From IMG/VR virus record IMGVR_UViG_3300030114_000522: a DNA stretch of 64,000 bases, one strand, 5' to 3'. This document shows, piece by piece, positions 7,466 to 57,313 of the stretch. The notes beneath the pieces are model-generated. The model was not told the origin of the DNA. It saw nothing but the letters and a program-made list of their open reading frames with translations, and ran no database searches. This DNA is from a virus. The position numbers and the translations under genes were made by a program. How positions within the stretch are numbered: the first letter of the stretch is position 1; each line of letters begins with the position of its first letter.

Positions 7466-7725
7466 AATTAATCACGTTCCTTCCTTATTTTAATTTATTA
7501 TTAAATCTAATTTATACTTTTTATAAATTCTAAAACTTTACCAAATATTGTATGTTTCTAGCTAACAAACACAAAATATAATAATGCTATAACCCAGTTA
7601 TAGCATTATTCTTAAATTTTAAAATTGTGATAAAAAGTGTATTTTATTTACTGTTTTTATTTTAATATATTATAAAAGACCTAGAATTTTTCATCTAAGC
7701 CTTTTAATTCAAATCAATATATAAT

Positions 7726-11009: not shown

Positions 11010-11107
11010 TAAAATACCTCCTTTAATTTATTTTGCACAACAAAAAAAGAACAATATTTCTATTGCTCTTAATTATTTCATATTTATATTTTTCTATTAA
11101 TTTTATA

Positions 11108-17928: not shown

Positions 17929-19491
17929 TTAATATATTTTTAAGTTATTTAATTTATTTTCTATATCATACTTTATATATTCTTCTAGGTTTAAATCTTT
18001 TATATATTTGAATTTAAAATTATGATGATGATTCCTTTTTCCTAAGCAAACATATATCACGTTACCATTTAATAATTTAACTCCGAACAACTCTTTACTT
18101 TGTCTTTCTAATTCAGCACTAGAAGAAAACACATGTCCAGTTGTTATACATATAATTGGTTTTCCATATAGTTTACCTAATTTGTAACTACGATTATATA
18201 ATTCTTCTTTTGCATTATAATCAATCCAATCCCATATTTTAGAACCCCTTTTAAGATAATTCAGTACAGTAGTTCTTCCCATATTCATCATTTTCCCAAT
18301 TTCACTTGTTGATAAGTCAGGAAAATCCCTTTTTATTTCACAAATAATTTTTAACAAATTACTAAAAGTAAATTCTTCGCAAACTTTCCAATCTATTTTA
18401 TCTAAATCAAAAATATTATTTAGATTGCTTTTTAATATGTTATTCTTAATCCATTCTAATACACTATATCTACAATCAATAATTATGTAATTTTCCTCTT
18501 TAATATTATTGGATAAAGCTAGTTCTTTCTTTAGTTTATCATTAAACTGTTCTTCTTTTAATGTTCTTGCACCTTTTATATTTTTAAAACTATTTTCATA
18601 ATGTTGTAATCCATTTACTTCTAAAATATATTGTTCATTATTATATTCAAAATAAAAATCATATCTATATGCATTTATCCATTCAAAAGTGGTTTTAGTT
18701 AATTGTGTTTGAAAATTTATATTTAGTTGTTCTAACATATTGAAAATTATTTTCTCACTATAAGAAACATTATCTGAACATGAGCAACCTATTGAATGTT
18801 GCTTATAAATTAATCCAATTTTCATTTCTTTGTTTTTAACTCTTCCACAATCAGTACAAGTTGGATTAATTTTAAATCCACTTCCACGAGTATATTTTTT
18901 AGCAACTTCCTCACCTATATATGGAATCATCCACTTATCTGTATCATATATTGTGTTAATGCCTAAGACGGCTTTAAAATTATTACAACATGAACATCCT
19001 TTTTCTTCTAAACTACTCTCTCGTACCCAATCCTCATAGTTGCAAATATTACAATGATACTTGTACCATTTTTCGTTTATATTATTCATATTTATTTTAT
19101 ATTTTGTTATAATCTTCTTATCTATAACTATAATATCACGTTTTTTATCCTTATAAGAAGTGCCAATTTTTATTTTAAAATCTTTTGTATGTTTACCTAA
19201 TAATATACCAAGTTTACATTTTTGCAAATTTAATTTTGATATTTTGTATTCTTTATTATCATATTTTACAAGTATATCATTCTTATTTATCCATTTTTTT
19301 ACTTCAATCCAGCCTTCTAAATCATCATAAATAAAATATATATATTGTTTAATTGATTCTTTCCAATTATAAGAATTTCCCTTTTTAGATAAACATTCTA
19401 AAAATGATTGTCTACATTGACCACTCTCAATTAATTCTTTATTTATTTCTTTAAATTTATTTATAATTTCTAAATATTCTTTTTTGTTCAT
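17929..19491 (-). CDS. free-standing homing-endonuclease-like protein (Zn ribbons, Vsr/PD-(D/E)XK-like domain, HTH, NUMOD1-like)
   Basis: several CxxC; SYSEK...RYDFYF...ILEVNGLQHY...D..K; C-terminal KPIICITTGHVFSS. Confidence 0.75.
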   Translation of the reverse strand: MNKKEYLEIINKFKEINKELIESGQCRQSFLECLSKKGNSYNWKESIKQYIYFIYDDLEGWIEVKKWINKNDILVKYDNKEYKISKLNLQKCKLGILLGKHTKDFKIKIGTSYKDKKRDIIVIDKKIITKYKINMNNINEKWYKYHCNICNYEDWVRESSLEEKGCSCCNNFKAVLGINTIYDTDKWMIPYIGEEVAKKYTRGSGFKINPTCTDCGRVKNKEMKIGLIYKQHSIGCSCSDNVSYSEKIIFNMLEQLNINFQTQLTKTTFEWINAYRYDFYFEYNNEQYILEVNGLQHYENSFKNIKGARTLKEEQFNDKLKKELALSNNIKEENYIIIDCRYSVLEWIKNNILKSNLNNIFDLDKIDWKVCEEFTFSNLLKIICEIKRDFPDLSTSEIGKMMNMGRTTVLNYLKRGSKIWDWIDYNAKEELYNRSYKLGKLYGKPIICITTGHVFSSSAELERQSKELFGVKLLNGNVIYVCLGKRNHHHNFKFKYIKDLNLEEYIKYDIENKLNNLKIY

Positions 19492-19528
19492 TGTTTAATC
19501 ACTTTCCTTTCAATCTTTTATTAATTTA

Positions 19529-19726
19529 TTATTTGGTTTCTATTTCCATATAAAAAGAACTCAAAGCTTTAAATAACTCTGAGTTCTTTTTATATTTATA
19601 TGTACTTATTCCATTAATCTCTTTTACAAACGTATATTTTACACCAATAGATTCAAGATAATCTCTTTCGTAATTCCATTGCGTAGAATACTCTTTATCA
19701 AACTTAGATATGTTATGGTTTGTCAT
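19529..19726 (-). CDS. hypothetical phage protein
   Basis: 65-aa ORF with RBS in the tail operon. Confidence 0.7.
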   Translation of the reverse strand: MTNHNISKFDKEYSTQWNYERDYLESIGVKYTFVKEINGISTYKYKKNSELFKALSSFYMEIETK

Positions 19727-19751
19727 ATTATTAAATCTCCTTTAATTAATT

Positions 19752-29735: not shown

Positions 29736-30326
29736 TTACTTTTTGGATTTTTTAGTATATTGTCTTTTAGGTTTATTTTCTTTTTTCATTTTATCAAATA
29801 TATTTTGTTGAAATTCTTCTGTAACTTCTTTATCACCTTGTTGTAATTTAATTAGTTTTTCTTGGTCTAATCCTAAATCGGCTAAAGTTTTATTAATATT
29901 TATATTTGATTTAAAAGCTTCTTTCATTTCTATTAATTTATTATTCATAATATCTAATTTCCTTATATCGTTTAATCTTAAATCCTGTGTTATTTCTAAC
30001 ATAATATCCATTAATGTATTAATAACTAATTTAAAATCTCCATCTGAATAATTTAATATATTATCAAGTTCAATATCATCAATACTATTCCAATATATTC
30101 TATCTTCAACATTTGTTAAATCTATTAACATCTCTCTAGCTATTTTAACTGTATTATTTATTTGAATATCCGACATACCATCTTCTTGTACAGTATTTGA
30201 ATTATCTCTAATCATTTGAGATATTTTATCATAACTATTTTTTATATGTTGTGGATTATATACTTCTAACTCTCCAAATTTAGCTTTTAATTTATTTTTA
30301 ATATATTTCTCTTCTAATTTAATCAT
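29736..30326 (-). CDS. hypothetical tail-region protein (possible assembly chaperone)
   Basis: immediately upstream of TMP; helical. Confidence 0.55.
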   Translation of the reverse strand: MIKLEEKYIKNKLKAKFGELEVYNPQHIKNSYDKISQMIRDNSNTVQEDGMSDIQINNTVKIAREMLIDLTNVEDRIYWNSIDDIELDNILNYSDGDFKLVINTLMDIMLEITQDLRLNDIRKLDIMNNKLIEMKEAFKSNININKTLADLGLDQEKLIKLQQGDKEVTEEFQQNIFDKMKKENKPKRQYTKKSKK

Positions 30327-30342
30327 GTAATTTTCTCTCCTT

Positions 30343-31701
30343 TTATATTGCTTGATTTAATTTAGCATTATCTTGAATTTCTTTTATTTGTTCTTCTGTA
30401 AGGTCGGAGGTAAATTTAAATCTATGACCTTTATAGTGTGTTCTTTCACCTCGACAAACTCTTGAAATTCCATTCCTATTTAATATCTCATCAAATATAT
30501 TTACACTTTTTCTTTCATATTCTGCTGAATTTTTAATTATTATTCCATTATCTATACATATTATTTCTTTACCTAACTTAATGCTACTTAATAAACCTGC
30601 TTTTTGTCCACTTCTTTTCATTTCTTCTTTTGGATTATAATAGCATAAACTCATCTCAGATGCTTGTTTTATATAAGTTCTTACTGCACCTGTCCCTAAA
30701 TTAGTTAAAATTACAATATCATTAATTGTCATATTAGGATTTTCATTTTTTATTTGTGATATATATTGAATAATATCCTTACATGCATATTCATGACATT
30801 TTAACCAATCAATCTTACTCAAATCAAATAGTTCATTCAGTCTACTATTTAAAATATGTTCTTTTATCCATTCTAATTCAGATTTTCTACAATCTATAAT
30901 AATGTAATTTTCTTCTTTGATTCCATTAGCTAATGCTAGTGCTTTCTTTAATCTATCATTTTCTTGTTCTTCTTTGAGATTTTTTGACCTTATATTTTGG
31001 AATCCTTCTTCATAATGTTGGTTTCCATGTATTTCCATTAAAATATTATAATCATTTATGTGGAAATCGTATCTTTTGTCACCACATATTTTAATATTTT
31101 TATGGCTAATATCCTTTGACCAATTAAATGTATTTTCTTTTATAAAATTAACAGATAATTGTTGTAAAACATTAAACATAAATTTTTCGCCATATGAGTT
31201 TCCCTTGTTATAACAATTTGGGCACTTAAATCCATCTCTATTTATAATGTGATTTTCAGTTCTTTCATACGTATGGTCACAATTTTTGCATTTAATTTTA
31301 TATCCTTTATGATTAGCTTTTCCAATCCTTAATTGTTTTAATATTATACCTTTTCCAAAATCATCTTTTATAATTTTGTCAATATTAAATCTATATTCCT
31401 TTATATATTTCCCAAACATAGCACCAAGTTGACATTTTTTCAAATTTCCACTTAAAATATCTATTGTTAAATTATTATATTCTAATGTAATTTTTTTATT
31501 ATATTCTGTTATTTTCATATACCCTTGAATTTTATCATAAATAAAATAAAAATAGTAGTCTTTTGTATTTGACCAATCTATTCCCTGTTTAATTTTAGGT
31601 AAATTTTCTAAAAATACTTTTTTACACTTTCCATTTTCAATTAATTCTTTATTCTCTTCTTTAAACTTTTCAATAATATTTAAATATTCATCATTTTTCA
31701 T
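30343..31701 (-). CDS. free-standing homing-endonuclease-like protein, paralog of 17929..19491
   Basis: CKNC/CPNC; SYGEK...RYDFHI...LMEIHGNQHY...END..K; shared IKEENYIIIDCR; NUMOD1-like tail. Confidence 0.75.
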   Translation of the reverse strand: MKNDEYLNIIEKFKEENKELIENGKCKKVFLENLPKIKQGIDWSNTKDYYFYFIYDKIQGYMKITEYNKKITLEYNNLTIDILSGNLKKCQLGAMFGKYIKEYRFNIDKIIKDDFGKGIILKQLRIGKANHKGYKIKCKNCDHTYERTENHIINRDGFKCPNCYNKGNSYGEKFMFNVLQQLSVNFIKENTFNWSKDISHKNIKICGDKRYDFHINDYNILMEIHGNQHYEEGFQNIRSKNLKEEQENDRLKKALALANGIKEENYIIIDCRKSELEWIKEHILNSRLNELFDLSKIDWLKCHEYACKDIIQYISQIKNENPNMTINDIVILTNLGTGAVRTYIKQASEMSLCYYNPKEEMKRSGQKAGLLSSIKLGKEIICIDNGIIIKNSAEYERKSVNIFDEILNRNGISRVCRGERTHYKGHRFKFTSDLTEEQIKEIQDNAKLNQAI

Positions 31702-31862
31702 AATAAATTCCTCCGATACATATTTAATTTATTTCCGAATTATTTAAAAATAGAAACAGGGAGTTCGGATACTCCTTTTCGATACGGTTTATAACTCCTT
31801 ATCTAGTTCCTACAATATATATTATAAAGTATTTCTACTATTATAACCATAACTAAAACGCC

Positions 31863-32231
31863 CTAACATTCCTCAATAACTTCCATAGTGAATCTTTTAT
31901 TCCCATCTCCAACCTTAAAAATTACATTTATTCTACTCTTATCTTCAATGCCATAATCTATGTATACACAACTTATAAAATCTTTTTCTAACCGCCCAAC
32001 ATCAACCCCATATACATCAAAGAACTTATGTATATCATCTAATATATGAGTCTCATTTGGGTTATCAGTATTTACTGCTACTCGGTTATATTGATTTTCA
32101 ATCATAAAATCCATGAAATTTAGTAGTTCCCCGTTCCTATTTAATAAATCATAATCTTTAATTTCCTCATATTCAATAACTCGTCCATTTGTTGAATAAT
32201 ATCTCATTTCCATTTCACATCTCTCCCTCAT
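31863..32231 (-). CDS. hypothetical protein (moron)
   Basis: own TTGACA-17-TATTAT promoter at 32278-32306; divergent from the HTH gene. Confidence 0.65.
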   Translation of the reverse strand: MRERCEMEMRYYSTNGRVIEYEEIKDYDLLNRNGELLNFMDFMIENQYNRVAVNTDNPNETHILDDIHKFFDVYGVDVGRLEKDFISCVYIDYGIEDKSRINVIFKVGDGNKRFTMEVIEEC

Positions 32232-32313
32232 AATTGTTAGGTAAGCTGGATTGTTTTACCTTTACCTTATGAATATAATAATAGTCCTTTAAAAGTATAA
32301 TGTCAATACTTTA

Positions 32314-32377
32314 ATTGAATATTTTTTATATATTTTTTACATATTTATATTCCTTCTATTGAATATTTTTTATATAT
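32314..32377. repeat. 20-bp direct repeat x2, candidate operator
   Basis: ATTGAATATTTTTTATATAT at 32314-32333 and 32358-32377, between divergent genes. Confidence 0.75.
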
Positions 32378-32407
32378 AATGTATAATAATCATGAGGTGA
32401 TTATGTC

Positions 32408-33367
32408 ATGGCAAAATTAAAAGTAAATAATTTGTTAGATAAATATAAGCTTAATCAAAAGGATTTATCTATAAGTACTGGAATAAATAAAAATACCGTT
32501 AGTAAATATTGTTCAAATACTTTTGAAAAAATAGATAAAGTTCATATTGATATGCTATGTAAATATTTTAAATGTACCCCTAATGATATATTTGAAATAG
32601 ATGATACCGTTAAAATTAAACCTGCACAAATAATATATTATGATGATAAAACTGATACTTTCACTTATAGTGAAATTACACCTTTAGCAGAAGTTCAATC
32701 ATCTAAAAAACAAATAGTCATAAGGGATGATGTAGATGAAAATACTATATGGACTAATAACTTTAATGAATTTTTAAAATATGCAAAAGAAAAGGGCGTA
32801 GATATAACTCCAATAGAAAACTCAGCAAAACTTAAACAAAAAGAATTTCAAAGTTATATTGAAGCAGAAAAAATAAATGAACCTTTATCACAAGAATATC
32901 TTACCGATGAACCATATTATACAGAAGAATTCGAAGACCCTATTAAGTCTTTGACTAAAGAAGAGCGTGAGGAATATACAAAAATAGTAAATGGATATCA
33001 AATTAGGTTTGATTCTGAATTAGAAACCGATAAATTAGTTTCAAAATTTATAGATAAACTAATAGAATTTTTTACATCTTCTTTTCAATTAGATACATCT
33101 ATTAAACAAGTTCTTACAAAATATGAAGGTCATGATTATTTTACAACTAATATAAAAGTTGATAAATTCTATCAAATTTTATATCGTTTTTTCACTTACT
33201 ATCCTGACGATAAAGGATTTGTAAAAACCTTAGTCAACATTAGATATATTTATAGCAATGGTGGTCTTGATAAATTATCCGATGAAGAACTAAATGATAT
33301 TCAAAGAACTCTTAACCACTATCTTAAAAATGACTTAAATATAAATACTGATAAAAACAAAGACTAG
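32408..33367 (+). CDS. Xre/Cro-type HTH regulator with long C-terminal domain
   Basis: LNQKDLSISTGINKNTVSKY...IDMLCKYFKCTPNDIF. Confidence 0.85.
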   Translation: MAKLKVNNLLDKYKLNQKDLSISTGINKNTVSKYCSNTFEKIDKVHIDMLCKYFKCTPNDIFEIDDTVKIKPAQIIYYDDKTDTFTYSEITPLAEVQSSKKQIVIRDDVDENTIWTNNFNEFLKYAKEKGVDITPIENSAKLKQKEFQSYIEAEKINEPLSQEYLTDEPYYTEEFEDPIKSLTKEEREEYTKIVNGYQIRFDSELETDKLVSKFIDKLIEFFTSSFQLDTSIKQVLTKYEGHDYFTTNIKVDKFYQILYRFFTYYPDDKGFVKTLVNIRYIYSNGGLDKLSDEELNDIQRTLNHYLKNDLNINTDKNKD

Positions 33368-33391
33368 ATATTTAATTTATTATCTAGTCTT
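33360..33391. terminator. hairpin terminator between convergent genes
   Basis: AAGACTAGATA-loop-TATCTAGTCTT. Confidence 0.7.
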
Positions 33392-33430
33392 ACATATTTC
33401 ACTCAGTTTAAATTTCTTATTTCATTAATA

Positions 33431-33874
33431 TTAACTAATATCAAATCCCTTTGATTTCAACATACCTAAAATTTCATTAATCGCTCTACCACTTGCTACA
33501 TATTCTTCTTGTATATTTCCTATAGCATCATATTCAATTCCTCCACGAGAATATCCTTCTCCATTCGCAAATGCTTCGGCAATTTCAGATAGTGTTCTGC
33601 TTTCTCCAACCCAATTTGATTGGCTATGCATCTCATCAGAAATATAAATTTCTATATAATATTCTCCACCTTTATTCTGAACTGGTTTTATAATAGCTGA
33701 ATTTAATAATTCCTGCGTACGGTTGTAAACCGAAGGTGTATAAGAATTGTAAATATTTGTCAATATATATAGCCTTATTGCTTGTTGAATTTTAATTGCT
33801 TCTTGTTCTAGCGATTGAATTACTTGTTTTTCTAAATTTGCATAAAATGCTTCTATTGAATTAAAATCTGCCAT
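33431..33874 (-). CDS. HK97-gp10-like tail completion protein
   Basis: Y.P..Y.RT..LLNS motif; position in tail module. Confidence 0.6.
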   Translation of the reverse strand: MADFNSIEAFYANLEKQVIQSLEQEAIKIQQAIRLYILTNIYNSYTPSVYNRTQELLNSAIIKPVQNKGGEYYIEIYISDEMHSQSNWVGESRTLSEIAEAFANGEGYSRGGIEYDAIGNIQEEYVASGRAINEILGMLKSKGFDIS

Positions 33875-33992
33875 TATATATATTCTCTCCTTATTGGTTT
33901 TATTTTAACTTATTCTCAGTTTAAATACTCAAGAATGGACACCAAGATAGATGTCCATATGTTCAATATTTAATTATTATTTTAATTTGTTA

Positions 33993-35087
33993 TTATGCTA
34001 CAACTATTCCTGTAACAATGTTTGAGTCACCTGCATGGATTCCACCCACAACATTTAATTTAAAGTCATAAGTTCCACTAGCTAAATTTATAATTTGTTT
34101 AGCTACATCTGTAGTGCTAATTGCAGTTGCTATTCTAGTACTTGTTCCTGTAGTTGCTACTGGACAATCTATCCAAACAGTATCAGATGTTAACTTATAT
34201 TTAGCAGTAATACTAGTTGCGTCACTAGAAACTGAGAATGTTAAATCAGCTTTTCCAGCAACAGTACTTGTAGCTGTTAAATTACTAATTGGTGCTAAAA
34301 CTGGGTCAAAAATAGAATCATAATCTTCTATTAACATATAGCCCATATTGTCTTCATCATCTGGTTTAATAATTGTATATTCTAAAGCTGTATTTGAAGC
34401 GTCAACTTCAGATTTTGTTGCCATTGTAAATTTACCTGTTGGTAAAGCTTTAGGAAATACCATTTTTAAAGTTTCTTTCTTCTTTGTTCCAGTATCTAAT
34501 AAGAAAGTTTCGCAAACTAGTCTAACTCCTGATGGATAACTCTCAGCATCAATATTAATTGTTCTAGCATTAGCAGATGTCTTATAATCATAAGATTCTA
34601 CGACTACAACTTCATTTAACTTAACTCCTGCTGTTAATATTGTGATAGTTCTGTTATCTGAGCCAATAGTATAACCTGTTGTCAATGCTAAATCTATTCC
34701 TTTATAAGACAACTTTAAATTAGCAGGTGTTAATGGAACTTTAGGTAATATTATTGTGGCTGTTGCTCCATCTATAGCTATTTTTAATTTATTTCTTGTA
34801 GTATAACCTACATTTTCACCAGTAACTATTGAAGTTCCTAATTGAGTTGCAATATTTTCTATATCCATAACTGGATTTGCAGTTTTTACAGTAACTTTTC
34901 TACCACTTGAAAGTACACATATTACAGGATTTCCTTGTCCTCCTCTAACTTCTTTTGTTGTGACATCAAATTCTAAATCAGCAGTTGTTAAATCTTCTTC
35001 TGTCATAAGATGTAAACCAGTCTCATTATCAAAAACATGGACATTCATTACGTCAGCTAATATTCTTTTTCCAAATTGTATTGCCAT
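33993..35087 (-). CDS. major tail protein with C-terminal FN3/Ig-like domain
   Basis: EVRGGQGNP, IDAESYP, FPKA motifs of SPbeta-like tail tubes. Confidence 0.8.
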   Translation of the reverse strand: MAIQFGKRILADVMNVHVFDNETGLHLMTEEDLTTADLEFDVTTKEVRGGQGNPVICVLSSGRKVTVKTANPVMDIENIATQLGTSIVTGENVGYTTRNKLKIAIDGATATIILPKVPLTPANLKLSYKGIDLALTTGYTIGSDNRTITILTAGVKLNEVVVVESYDYKTSANARTINIDAESYPSGVRLVCETFLLDTGTKKKETLKMVFPKALPTGKFTMATKSEVDASNTALEYTIIKPDDEDNMGYMLIEDYDSIFDPVLAPISNLTATSTVAGKADLTFSVSSDATSITAKYKLTSDTVWIDCPVATTGTSTRIATAISTTDVAKQIINLASGTYDFKLNVVGGIHAGDSNIVTGIVVA

Positions 35088-40513: not shown

Positions 40514-41088
40514 TTAATTTCCTCGCTTTCATATTTTAATTTATTTTTTAGTTTTGTTTAATAATTTGTTTAGTTAAAACTAAACTACTTTTAATACTAA
40601 TGCGTCTTGACCATAAAGAGTTTCTACAGCTCTAACTTCAAAGCATAAACTTCCTGATGCAGTAGCATTGATTTTTCCTAAGTATGAACCTACTACTGGA
40701 ATTACAAATTTTCCTACCATATCAGCAGAAACATTTGTAGCACTTGTGATACCATCAATAGTAGCTGTTATTGTAGAATCTTTTGGTAAATGATAACCTC
40801 TTATAATGTCTCCTGTTTTAAAAGTCATTGTAGTTTCATCTTCTGTTCCTGTTCTATTCATGAATTCTTCTACTAACATAACTATTGAACTAGTTACATC
40901 GGCAATTTTCACTCCATTTACAGTATTGTAAGCAGTTCCTGTTGTTCCTACTGATATTAAAGCACCGTTTGGTACTCCTGCTTCTGGTATTACTACACTT
41001 TCTAAATATGCGTTTTTTGATACTTTGTCTAATTGAATTAACATAATTAATTTCCTCGCTTTCATATTTTAATTTATTTTTTAGTTTT
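40514..41088. repeat. perfect 42-bp direct repeat forming the leaders of two capsid genes
   Basis: 40514-40555 is identical to 41047-41088. Confidence 0.95.
40580..41044 (-). CDS. capsid decoration/minor head protein (YonC-like); likely start 41044
   Basis: NG.L..VG and G...RGY.L patterns; lies between protease and MCP. Confidence 0.65.
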   Translation of the reverse strand: MLIQLDKVSKNAYLESVVIPEAGVPNGALISVGTTGTAYNTVNGVKIADVTSSIVMLVEEFMNRTGTEDETTMTFKTGDIIRGYHLPKDSTITATIDGITSATNVSADMVGKFVIPVVGSYLGKINATASGSLCFEVRAVETLYGQDALVLKVV

Positions 41089-47152: not shown

Positions 47153-47995
47153 CTAAATCTTTTTGTTTATATAATCTTTATAGTACATCCATTTTAAAAG
47201 TATTCCGTCCTCTAATTTCCCACACGTTCCTCTTATCCCTTTACAACATTTTGTAATACAACTTCCATCGCAATTATAAAATATCGCACCATCTCGCACA
47301 GTATCAAATTCTTTTCCAGTTGTAATACATATTACTTTTTTAGCATAAGGATTATCTTTTCCTACCCTACCTTCACTTATTTTTTTCTTAGTTTCTTGTG
47401 ATATTATCTTTCCCTTTTGAGAATCACTCATTTTCTTTTTTGTTTCTTCTGAATAATGAGTCCCAAACAAAGGGTTTAAAGTTTTATTTAATCCCTTATT
47501 CCAAGATTCATACCCTTTTTTACTCCAATGATTTTCTTTCATTCTTAATCTAGTTTCTTCTGAATGAATCTTTCCGTAATTAGGATTTCCTTCTCCTTTA
47601 TTATTTATACTCATTCTTATTTTAGTCTCAATACTAGGACTCCCAGTTCCTCCACCTTCATTCATATTATATCCATTATTAATCGAATCATGGATACTAA
47701 TCCAACATTTTTCTTTAATATCTAATTCTTCTTGCGAAAATGCCATGTCTAGTATTTTAGTAGTAATAAAGTTGGCATATCCTTGTTTAGTCATAGCACT
47801 AAGTAAGTGTCTATTATAATAATACCCTTGTTCTTTATGACTTTTATAATAATTATAAACTCTTTCTGAATCTATGCCACCATAATCATAACGCTTATTA
47901 AATTCCTGTATTGTTTGTCCAATATAAATTTTATTATTTAATATATTTTCAATTTTATATATAATTCCATATACTTCTAAATTCCCTATTAACAT
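47153..47995 (-). CDS. GIY-YIG homing endonuclease with NUMOD3/NUMOD1-like repeats
   Basis: GIIYKIEN...IYIGQT, E..WI, GYN...GG, HSEET repeats, KKVICITTG. Confidence 0.9.
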   Translation of the reverse strand: MLIGNLEVYGIIYKIENILNNKIYIGQTIQEFNKRYDYGGIDSERVYNYYKSHKEQGYYYNRHLLSAMTKQGYANFITTKILDMAFSQEELDIKEKCWISIHDSINNGYNMNEGGGTGSPSIETKIRMSINNKGEGNPNYGKIHSEETRLRMKENHWSKKGYESWNKGLNKTLNPLFGTHYSEETKKKMSDSQKGKIISQETKKKISEGRVGKDNPYAKKVICITTGKEFDTVRDGAIFYNCDGSCITKCCKGIRGTCGKLEDGILLKWMYYKDYINKKI

Positions 47996-55389: not shown

Positions 55390-55429
55390 AACTTTCTCCC
55401 TTTATTATTATTTTAATTTATTCTTATGT

Positions 55430-55861: not shown

Positions 55862-55947
55862 TGGTGGGAATTGATGGAGTTAAACCACCCGAGTATTTAA
55901 ACAACAGATTTACAGTCTGCCCCGCTATCCCTACGGTATAAATTCCC
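55862..55947 (-). tRNA. tRNA-Tyr (GTA) with encoded CCA
   Basis: acceptor GGGAATT/AATTCCC-ACCA; anticodon arm GCAGA-CTGTAAA-TCTGT; long variable arm. Confidence 0.9.
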
Positions 55948-55949
55948 AT

Positions 55950-57030
55950 ATTAAAAGTAAGCTTAACGTACTTACCATGATTGTATTACGACTAATAACC
56001 TATTAGTTATATGATACATATATAAGATGTATAGAACTTCATGTATCTCTAGTTCCTAGAAAACTAAGTTTAATCTAATTAAATAATCTAATCAATCTAG
56101 AGTGACCAATTAGTTTCGATGGTACAGAGATTAAAACTCCTCCATCTTTTAATGTTATTTTTCTACAATAGACAATATACTAAATAACTTTCCCTATTTT
56201 TATCGTTGTTAAGGCACAACTACAGTCACTTTCGTACTGCTGATTTTCTATTTAATTACATATAAATTCTCGCAAGAACTTATAATTTATTTGAATATTT
56301 TCTTTCAGACTATTAGTCCTATTCAAGTTGTGGTAAATATTCAACCCTTGTAAAGTTAATTAAACACCTAATCTTGAAACGATATTTAATTTATTACTTA
56401 ATAGATATACATTGTTATCTATTGTGTTACAGTTTCTCACTTTAGATAAATCATGGTAGGGAATCACCAAAATTCTATTATTCCCATATGGGCTAAATTC
56501 TTCTTCTTTTGAGCATCTAACTCAATTCAATATTTGTTGGGATTCTATACCCATTCTTAAATCAGTCGGCGTAAAGCCTTTTAAATAAATCACAAGTCCA
56601 AGAAATTACTTTAAAGTAATATGGAACAATATTAAATCTTCATAATCTCACTTGAAGATTGTGCCCTTCAGCTTAAATTCACTGTTATGTTATTGCAATA
56701 AACATTAATCCATTGTAAATTAGGCATGAATCAAACCTATCATTCTTATAACTCACTATATTACACGTTGGTTTTATAGTTACTAACCTCAGATATGATT
56801 AAGTTTAAAAATGTAACCCGTTTGCCATCCTTTGATTACCCATATTAATTTGGCATATCTGCTTTTCTGCAATCGCCCACCAATTGAGTTGTAACTATCT
56901 CCTCTTTCAATCAATCTACTAGTCTGATTGTAGATAGTTCCCATTTTATATATTAACCACCATTCCACAGTCAATATATTATTTGATTTAAAAGCCGATG
57001 ATTACTATGTAAAAATCAGTTGCTTTTTCT
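55950..57030 (-). ncRNA. candidate large structured ncRNA (GOLLD/ROOL-like context, family not identified)
   Basis: no credible ORF; dense hairpins, GNRA loops, long-range helix; adjacent to tRNA. Confidence 0.6.
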
Positions 57031-57313
57031 ATAACTTGATAGATAAGCTTATAAAATTGTTGTTTTAATGTATTGCTTTATTTCCATTTCTATTAACACT
57101 CCTTAATAGAAATAAATATTTTATTAAATTGCATAGGATGGTCGGTGTATCCATCATTTCAGATACTCTTTCGAGTGCGTAGAGAACCATTTTCTACTTC
57201 TATACAATTCATTGATTCTGTGGCTGGATTTATGTTATTGCTAACTACCCTATCCACCCATTATTTAGTCAAATATCATAATAATGAGTATCTGCTAATA
57301 TTATATTTACAAA

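Follow-up and report, generated by a model that had tools for sequence, protein, structure and literature searches.

A structured RNA leader precedes two homing-endonuclease-like genes in the 64,000-nucleotide window, the whole stretch of viral DNA analysed here (IMG/VR virus record IMGVR_UViG_3300030114_000522). In each copy, a hairpin loop is complementary to the ribosome-binding site of the gene that follows, and among relatives the loop and its downstream sites change together. Located in the 5' leader of the nuclease mRNA, the structure probably serves as a translational silencer, acting through pairing of this loop with the Shine-Dalgarno (SD) sequence. Homing endonucleases cut DNA and need tight control; to our knowledge, little is known about how phages outside the T4 family achieve it. 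The sequence-only reading of this DNA had suggested a silencing of toxic nucleases. Covariation of loop and SD across the family now supports the underlying pairing, and both genes are homing-endonuclease-like. We infer the silencing itself, as well as the lowering of translation by the pairing and whatever relieves it. The leaders form a family that is widespread and uncatalogued. Beyond the initial observation, our analysis adds a two-site design, a promoter together with a terminator-like U-run, a palindromic loop on the second stem and a kinship with the Rfam motif int-alpA.

Copy 1 occupies the approximately 160 nt upstream of the open reading frame at 30343-31701, and this frame and all elements of the leader are on the minus strand. 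The three-way junction spans 31812-31751. Stem P1 is formed by UAGGAAC (31812-31806) and GUUUCUA (31757-31751), P2 by GAUAAGG (31803-31797) and CCGUAUC (31787-31781) with one A/G mismatch, and P3 by GGAGU (31775-31771) and ACUCC (31764-31760). The joints are UA (J12), GAAAA (J23, 31780-31776) and CU (J31). The P2 loop, AGUUAUAAA (31788-31796), contains the 6-nt palindrome UUAUAA and is a candidate kissing-loop dimerization site. The P3 loop, AUCCGA (31770-31765), is the anti-site or ‘address’ loop, which complements two sites downstream. A run of five U (31750-31746), resembling that of an intrinsic terminator, directly follows the 3' strand of P1. Beyond it is site 1, UUCGGA (31739-31734), an upstream ‘parking’ site complementary to the P3 loop. 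Site 2, UCGGA (31716-31712), overlaps the SD GGAGG (31714-31710), and the AUG of the 452-codon frame follows 8 nt after the SD, at 31701. Between the two sites is AATAAATTAAA (31733-31723), a copy of a phage-wide, strand-specific motif that is a candidate phage promoter. Upstream of the junction, a sigma-70-like promoter candidate (31849-31821) is composed of TGGTTA (31849-31844), a 17-nt spacer and TATAAT (31826-31821). Its -10 hexamer is perfect and ends 8 nt upstream of P1. The candidate scores 9/12 in our own promoter scan and is absent from the output of a consensus promoter tool. P3 and the T-rich tail were flagged as terminator-like by a prediction tool.

The minimum-free-energy fold of copy 1 calculated with RNAfold is the three-way junction. 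The junction, loop, both sites and ribosome-binding site named in the sequence-only reading were all found at these minus-strand coordinates in sequence and fold. The loop forms duplexes of -7.4 and -7.0 kcal/mol with its two sites; loop-site helices in the window are short, with 5-6 bp and about -7 kcal/mol. The fold energy is ordinary for the AT-rich composition (z -1.2), and a single sequence proves nothing. The evidence therefore rests on comparison. Among the sequencing runs listed as carrying the window sequence, 24 are peat-metagenome DNA runs and none is an RNA run. In contigs of related peat phages, the junction recurs with U in place of C at 31781, a change that keeps the P2 pair as G-U. 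In addition, short contigs from peat runs X3 and X4 carry the junction (31745-31812) with five differences and other flanks, at a depth of 58-116 compared to about 5 for the window's own phage. Their downstream flank is AAAUAAAUUAAAGUACGAAUCGGAGGUAUUAC, which indicates that a commoner relative in the same peat retains UCGGA on the SD.

Copy 2 (48141-48029, minus strand) consists of P1, an enlarged middle domain and P3, and its fold has a z-score of -3.17. P1 was placed by a covariance model and is formed by AAAUGAGA (48141-48134) and UCUCAUUU (48036-48029). P3 is formed by 48057-48051 and 48044-48038, and presents the loop AUCCUA (48050-48045). The tail (48026-48004) contains AATAAATTAAA at 48026-48016 and UAGGA at 48010-48006, the latter overlapping the SD GGAGG at 48008-48004. 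The compensatory change that had been claimed between the loop of this copy and its SD is indeed present. Inspection of the tail located the SD site only, with no site 1. The palindrome AGUAAUUAAG is found in an unpaired stretch of the enlarged middle domain.

Both genes are related to homing endonucleases. The gene behind copy 1 (30343-31701) encodes a 452-amino-acid zinc-finger homing-endonuclease-like protein. It matches the PHROG families phrog_4538, phrog_559 (HNH endonuclease) and phrog_9084 (homing endonuclease), its C-terminus resembles the DNA-binding part of I-HmuI (1u3e), and it has a weak match to DUF4379. The gene behind copy 2 (47153-47995, minus strand) encodes a 280-amino-acid GIY-YIG/NUMOD3 homing-endonuclease-like protein. 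A paralogous nuclease gene at 17929-19491 (minus strand) encodes 520 amino acids, 34% identical to the 452-amino-acid protein in BLASTP. No junction leader was found upstream of this paralog, so the gene family can do without the device. The region upstream of the paralog (19492-19751) contains a terminator-like hairpin, the motif AATAAATTAA and then GAAAGGAAAG.

Leaders of the same architecture are found in other phages. Two IMG/VR homologs of the 452-amino-acid protein have a junction of the same shape at the same place, with the -10 element TGTTATAAT. Their P3 loop is CUCCAAU, and AUUGGAG occurs twice downstream, the second time on the SD. Approximately 100 further upstream regions were gathered by a pattern scan and a profile-based locus search. 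Many of them share the architecture and differ in the sequences of loop and sites. Examples of loop/site pairs are UUCGACC/GGUCGAA, CCUUUCA/UGAAAGG, UCCUUGU/ACAAGGA, UCACUCC/GGAGUGA, CUCCGAU/AUCGGAG, AACCACC/GGUGGUU, UCUCAAUC/GAUUGAGA and ACUCCCUU/AAGGGAGU. Megablast of window positions 30000-34000 against the phage records gave no match, and the window's exact pattern of P3, P1' and U-run was not found in the IMG/VR set searched, from which the window itself is absent.

Covariance models connect these leaders to the window. Model R2, based on a pair of IMG/VR leaders whose sequences are unrelated to the window, matches positions 31738-31817 with 39.2 bits (E 3.6e-6) and also recovers 13 more distinct leaders, almost noise-free. 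With the refined model R3, copy 1 scores 59.2 bits. Copy 2 scores only 21.3 bits (E 0.2), which is the second-best match in the window with filters off. A covariance-model search of phage genomes had been proposed with the original observation; over five whole phage records, R3 found 1-4 copies each and ten new copies in all. The genes behind seven of eight new R3 copies belong to PHROG families annotated as homing, HNH or GIY-YIG endonucleases. Both window copies likewise precede genes of the homing-endonuclease type, and overall at least three unrelated kinds of nuclease are served. Three other approaches were discarded. The single-sequence model R1 (from L004) recovered close relatives only and missed the window, MAFFT alignments of leaders (A3, A7) were structurally poor and were excluded from the models, and a loose GAAAA-anchored descriptor produced mostly chance matches on the window.

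Several other arrangements were seen during these searches. The record G006 (IMG/VR 3300047323_000304) contains identical leaders at 186698-186777 (minus strand) and 190713-190792 (plus strand), inverted and 4 kb apart, before two different paralogs of the nuclease. Five IMG/VR loci (L257, L259, L288, L291 and L265) have a variant leader with a short P1, a P2 and a long P3, which R3 does not detect. Its P2 loop is palindromic in both cases checked, L257 and L259 (UUGCAA, UUCGAA), and its P3 loops (CCACUAU, UUCCUUA, CCAAUA) match a single site abutting the SD. An unrelated structured leader from the pattern scan is found in Terrisporobacter and Clostridium genomes (L150, L210, L110). This 5' UTR consists of several hairpins, with CCCUCCUG opposite CAGGAGG at the SD, and has a riboswitch-like look.

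Comparison of the relatives supports the three helices. In alignment A9 of 16 sequences, 96.3% of the cells are paired, compared to 70% in column shuffles and 42-58% with slid partners. Both sides have changed in 21 of 22 pairs, across all three helices. Because A9 was fitted to the model's structure, the pair counts are somewhat inflated; the gap to the slid controls is still large. G-U pairs are frequent, which fits an RNA transcribed from the gene strand.

Comparison also supports the pairing of the P3 loop with the sequences downstream. When junctions are delimited purely by their structure, the longest stretch of the tail that complements its own P3 loop has a mean length of 6.08 nt, against 4.04 nt for non-cognate tails, 3.84 nt for the P2 loop and 4.02 nt for shuffled loops. 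None of 20000 permutations reached the observed mean. An earlier test, in which the entire leader was searched for its longest complement to the SD zone, was not significant (p 0.10), because AT-rich matches and non-members swamped the signal. Across more than 25 relatives, a change in the P3 loop goes with matching changes at both downstream sites, and at least 15 sequence versions occur. The sequence-only reading had named a failure of this covariation in more homologs as grounds for rejection; instead, loop and ribosome-binding site covary across the family, and no permutation equals the observed value. In all ten new R3 copies, whose tails are outside the model, the P3 loop matches two sites of its own tail, in one case over 13 bp. 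The mean duplex energies of the best and second-best cognate sites are -9.1 and -7.9 kcal/mol, compared to -5.5 and -4.2 kcal/mol for non-cognate pairs, and the cognate values were reached in none of 5000 permutations. The second, non-overlapping cognate site is significant across the family. Site 2 starts 11-22 nt before the start codon, that is, in the SD or the spacer. The UUCGGA at 31734-31739, noted originally as an alternative partner of the loop, is present, and it is more than an alternative: a second site is a constant part of the design.

The same data bear on the idea that the matches between loop and sites are incidental, and that the structure does no more than terminate transcription or insulate at the border of a mobile nuclease cassette, or else works as a site on DNA. 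P1 or P3 followed by the U-run does look like a terminator, and palindromes could in principle be binding sites for a protein on DNA. However, loop and sites covary in at least 15 versions, with a match that no permutation equals, and a terminator has no use for two sites and a conserved junction. The frequent G-U pairs become A-C mismatches on the opposite strand. The palindromes differ between copies, yet always occur in the P2 loop. This explanation is already disfavoured, and we regard it as very improbable.

A riboswitch is an equally distant prospect. Several translational riboswitches consist of a junction with semi-conserved joints and a pseudoknot to the SD. The leaders share these features, with a three-way junction, the semi-conserved joints UAG and GAAAA and a pseudoknot to the SD, so the junction could in principle bind a small molecule and use the loop-SD pairing as its expression platform. 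However, conservation outside the helices is confined to few positions, and the joints differ (GAAAA, UGAUA, UAAUA, GAAUG); the length of P2 ranges from 5 to 14 bp. The only constant features of the loops are self-complementarity and complementarity to the tail, and the genes served are selfish nucleases, not metabolic genes.

Among catalogued RNAs, the closest resemblance is to int-alpA. An Rfam search of the whole window at the gathering threshold returned only skipping-rope and drum RNAs. These matches, at 57129-57207 (66.5 bits) and 56290-56399 (63.8 bits) on the minus strand, are in the same gene-free stretch, and there is a weak tRNA-like match at 55866-55947. int-alpA was not listed in the E-value scan of the whole window. 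In a 501-nt search, copy 1 alone matches int-alpA (RF02996) with 30.3 bits (E 2.3e-4), below the cut-off of 35.8. No int-alpA match was obtained for copy 2, the five related phage records or 16 relatives, and the 16 relatives scanned match no Rfam family. int-alpA was reported as a candidate small RNA motif (Weinberg et al. 2017, PMC5737381). Its three-way junction corresponds to that of copy 1, with the same joints UA, GAAAA and CU and a U-tract after P1. When copy 1 is aligned to the int-alpA model, CUAG, CGAAAAG and CCUG with the U-run are in register; the other relatives keep UAG, and their J23 varies.

We compared the leaders with four genuine E. coli int-alpA RNAs (64-69 bits), which are located directly 3' of integrase genes, before the next gene. 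Immediately beyond the U-run, UAAGGC or UAAGGU complements the respective P3 loop (GCCUUA or ACCUUA), and loop and site covary; AAGG in the SD of the following gene is a further partner of these loops. Thus in int-alpA the tail is complementary to the P3 loop, as in the window, where UCCGAA pairs with UUCGGA. The best R3 match is in register on int-alpA in three of the four E. coli loci and near-tied in the fourth (L309), with scores of 9-20 bits. The two groups also differ. int-alpA is GC-rich and located between integrase and island genes, in the integrase/alpA islands of beta- and gamma-Proteobacteria, whereas the phage leaders are AT-rich and precede homing-endonuclease genes, those of the window in an AT-rich peat phage. 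In int-alpA, P2 is short with a 4-nt non-palindromic loop; in the phage leaders, it is longer with a palindromic loop of about 9 nt. The sites are about 9 nt apart in int-alpA and 13-46 nt apart in the phage leaders. We therefore regard the phage leaders as an uncatalogued, divergent form of the int-alpA design and not as formal members of that family.

These observations suggest how the leader might work. The nuclease mRNA would start at or near the host-type promoter, and its 5' leader would be a three-way-junction RNA of about 65 nt that ends in the P1 stem and then the U-run. The junction would be a scaffold displaying the P3 loop, a short ‘address’ for two downstream sites, one just past the U-run and the other on the SD. 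Pairing of the loop with site 2 would hide the ribosome-binding site and keep synthesis of the homing-endonuclease-like protein low. Site 1 is as good a partner for the loop as the SD, so a purely cis-acting leader might leave the SD free. As a constant part of the design, site 1 most likely either parks the loop in cis, or is clamped together with the SD by a second leader molecule. In the latter case, the second molecule could be recruited through the palindromic P2 loop.

Features flanking and within the junction are relevant to these options. A promoter match of at least 9/12 ends 3-10 nt upstream of P1 in 15 of the 26 leaders, compared to 8.8% of control positions, and three of the 26 have a perfect TTGACA-17-TATAAT. 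This enrichment places the junction at the 5' end of a predicted primary transcript. Directly after P1, both the R3 consensus and the int-alpA consensus contain a U-tract. Palindromes of at least 6 nt are found in 15 of 18 distinct P2 loops, in about nine different sequences, whereas shuffling the P2 loops left a mean of 2.4 and a maximum of 8 such loops (2000 shuffles). This excess points to self-pairing between loops. Copies in the same phage usually differ in both the loop address and the palindrome.

The junction could be mainly a separate small RNA, with its own promoter and an end at the U-run, that acts in trans on the nuclease mRNA. In one version, it would dock on the mRNA's leader through the P2 palindrome, and the two P3 loops would clamp site 1 and the SD. 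The promoters, the conserved U-tract, the palindromes and the int-alpA entry, which Rfam classes as a small RNA, are all in line with this. Site 1 is beyond the U-run, and so outside any RNA that ends there. Differing addresses and palindromes within one phage are expected if cross-talk in trans is avoided. However, drift with compensation in cis could also produce such differences, as could the arrival of each gene with its own leader, and one IMG/VR phage has two leaders with an identical loop. Intrinsic terminators do not usually have a stem that closes a multibranch loop, as P1 does, and copy 2 has no site 1. We consider a separate small RNA a real possibility that falls short of being probable.

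Such an RNA would resemble c4. c4 is a small structured RNA upstream of its target and on the same strand, with loops that complement sequences at the downstream gene's ribosome-binding site. Its target sites are duplicated (a1b1, a2b2), and differences in loops and sites set the specificity between related phages. In c4, each of two different sites has a loop of its own, and the RNA is released by RNase P processing. In the leaders described here, one loop fits two copies of one site, and action in trans is putative. No Rfam match to c4 (RF01695) was obtained at E up to 10. By analogy of function, the c4 antisense RNA of phages P1 and P7 (Citron and Schuster 1990, as cited in PMC2864571) is the nearest worked-out counterpart of the phage leaders.

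The cis-acting silencer can also be compared with the control of homing endonucleases in the T4 family, where RNA structures that sequester the ribosome-binding site hold these genes down (Edgell et al. 2010, PMC2988022). Hairpins of this kind precede I-TevI, I-TevII, I-TevIII, segB and mobE of Aeh1, and for I-TevI, segB and mobE late transcripts escape the masking structure (PMC2988022). The genes are of the same kind, free-standing or intron-borne homing endonucleases, and the presumed purpose is the same. In both systems, the SD would be paired in transcripts started upstream, and a promoter-like motif is located just before the SD. However, in T4 a local hairpin encloses the SD, whereas in the window the loop of a junction scaffold reaches the SD over about 50 nt, and no stable local hairpin over the SD was found in the folds of copy 1. 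Unlike the T4 hairpins, the phage leaders have a second matching site, a palindromic loop, their own promoter candidate and a U-run. The two show no sequence relationship. Separately, in two IMG/VR loci (L243, L272) a plain local hairpin, GCCUCCUGACGAGGAGG, encloses the SD just upstream of homologs of the nuclease, a T4-style solution before the same gene family.

The promoter-like motif is the AATAAATTAAA sequence (AATAARTTAAA). The sequence-only reading had placed a putative late-promoter motif between the structure and the ribosome-binding site. The motif is real, occupies this spacer and extends across the phage: the window contains 22 copies, 21 of them on the gene strand, compared to 3.3 expected. 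Examples on the minus strand are at 7489-7499, 11022-11032, 40535-40545, 41068-41078 and 55412-55422. It occurs 3-30 nt upstream of the SD at many genes, including genes without a junction. Three related IMG/VR phage records of about 200 kb contain 50-60 copies against 9-14 in the control, again strand-blocked. One further copy in the window (56385-56395) is at the 5' end of the drum match. In the phage records G009 and G010, the motif is not enriched, yet each has 3-4 leaders; the motif is therefore not part of the RNA device. It is a phage-wide signal and a plausible promoter that sits in the spacer in this lineage.

If the motif is a promoter, the leader could act as a T4-type timing switch. 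Transcripts that start at the upstream promoter or reach the gene by read-through would carry the junction and be silent, and transcripts started at AATAAATTAAA would lack it and be translated late. The position of the motif in exactly this spacer in both window copies, its abundance before many other genes and in the three related phages, and the precedents in T4 speak for such a switch. However, the promoter role is only putative, and at some genes the motif abuts the SD, which leaves almost no 5' UTR. The leaders of G009 and G010 exist without enrichment of the motif, and only about 9 nt separate the sites in E. coli int-alpA. A timing switch therefore cannot account for the family as a whole, and we find it possible but somewhat doubtful for the window.

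The most far-reaching reading combines the address loop with the palindrome. The leaders would be a programmable, self-recognizing RNA lock, with its own address and dimerization code for each nuclease gene and the same two-site logic in int-alpA. A short, terminated junction would kiss the mRNA's own junction, and the two P3 loops would clamp site 1 and the SD. We put this forward tentatively and think it rather unlikely. If it is true, the lock and int-alpA would together form one broad class of loop-addressed translational silencers on mobile genes.

The leader family packs a promoter, a scaffold formed by the junction, a loop that is self-complementary, and an address loop with its two sites into a compact, portable unit. 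Many uncultivated AT-rich phages carry it next to nuclease genes, which are of at least three unrelated kinds. The design of one loop and two sites suggests a directly testable function for int-alpA, an orphan Rfam motif since 2017. If the silencing mechanism is true, the changeable pairs of loop and site would be natural, orthogonal off-switches of translation.
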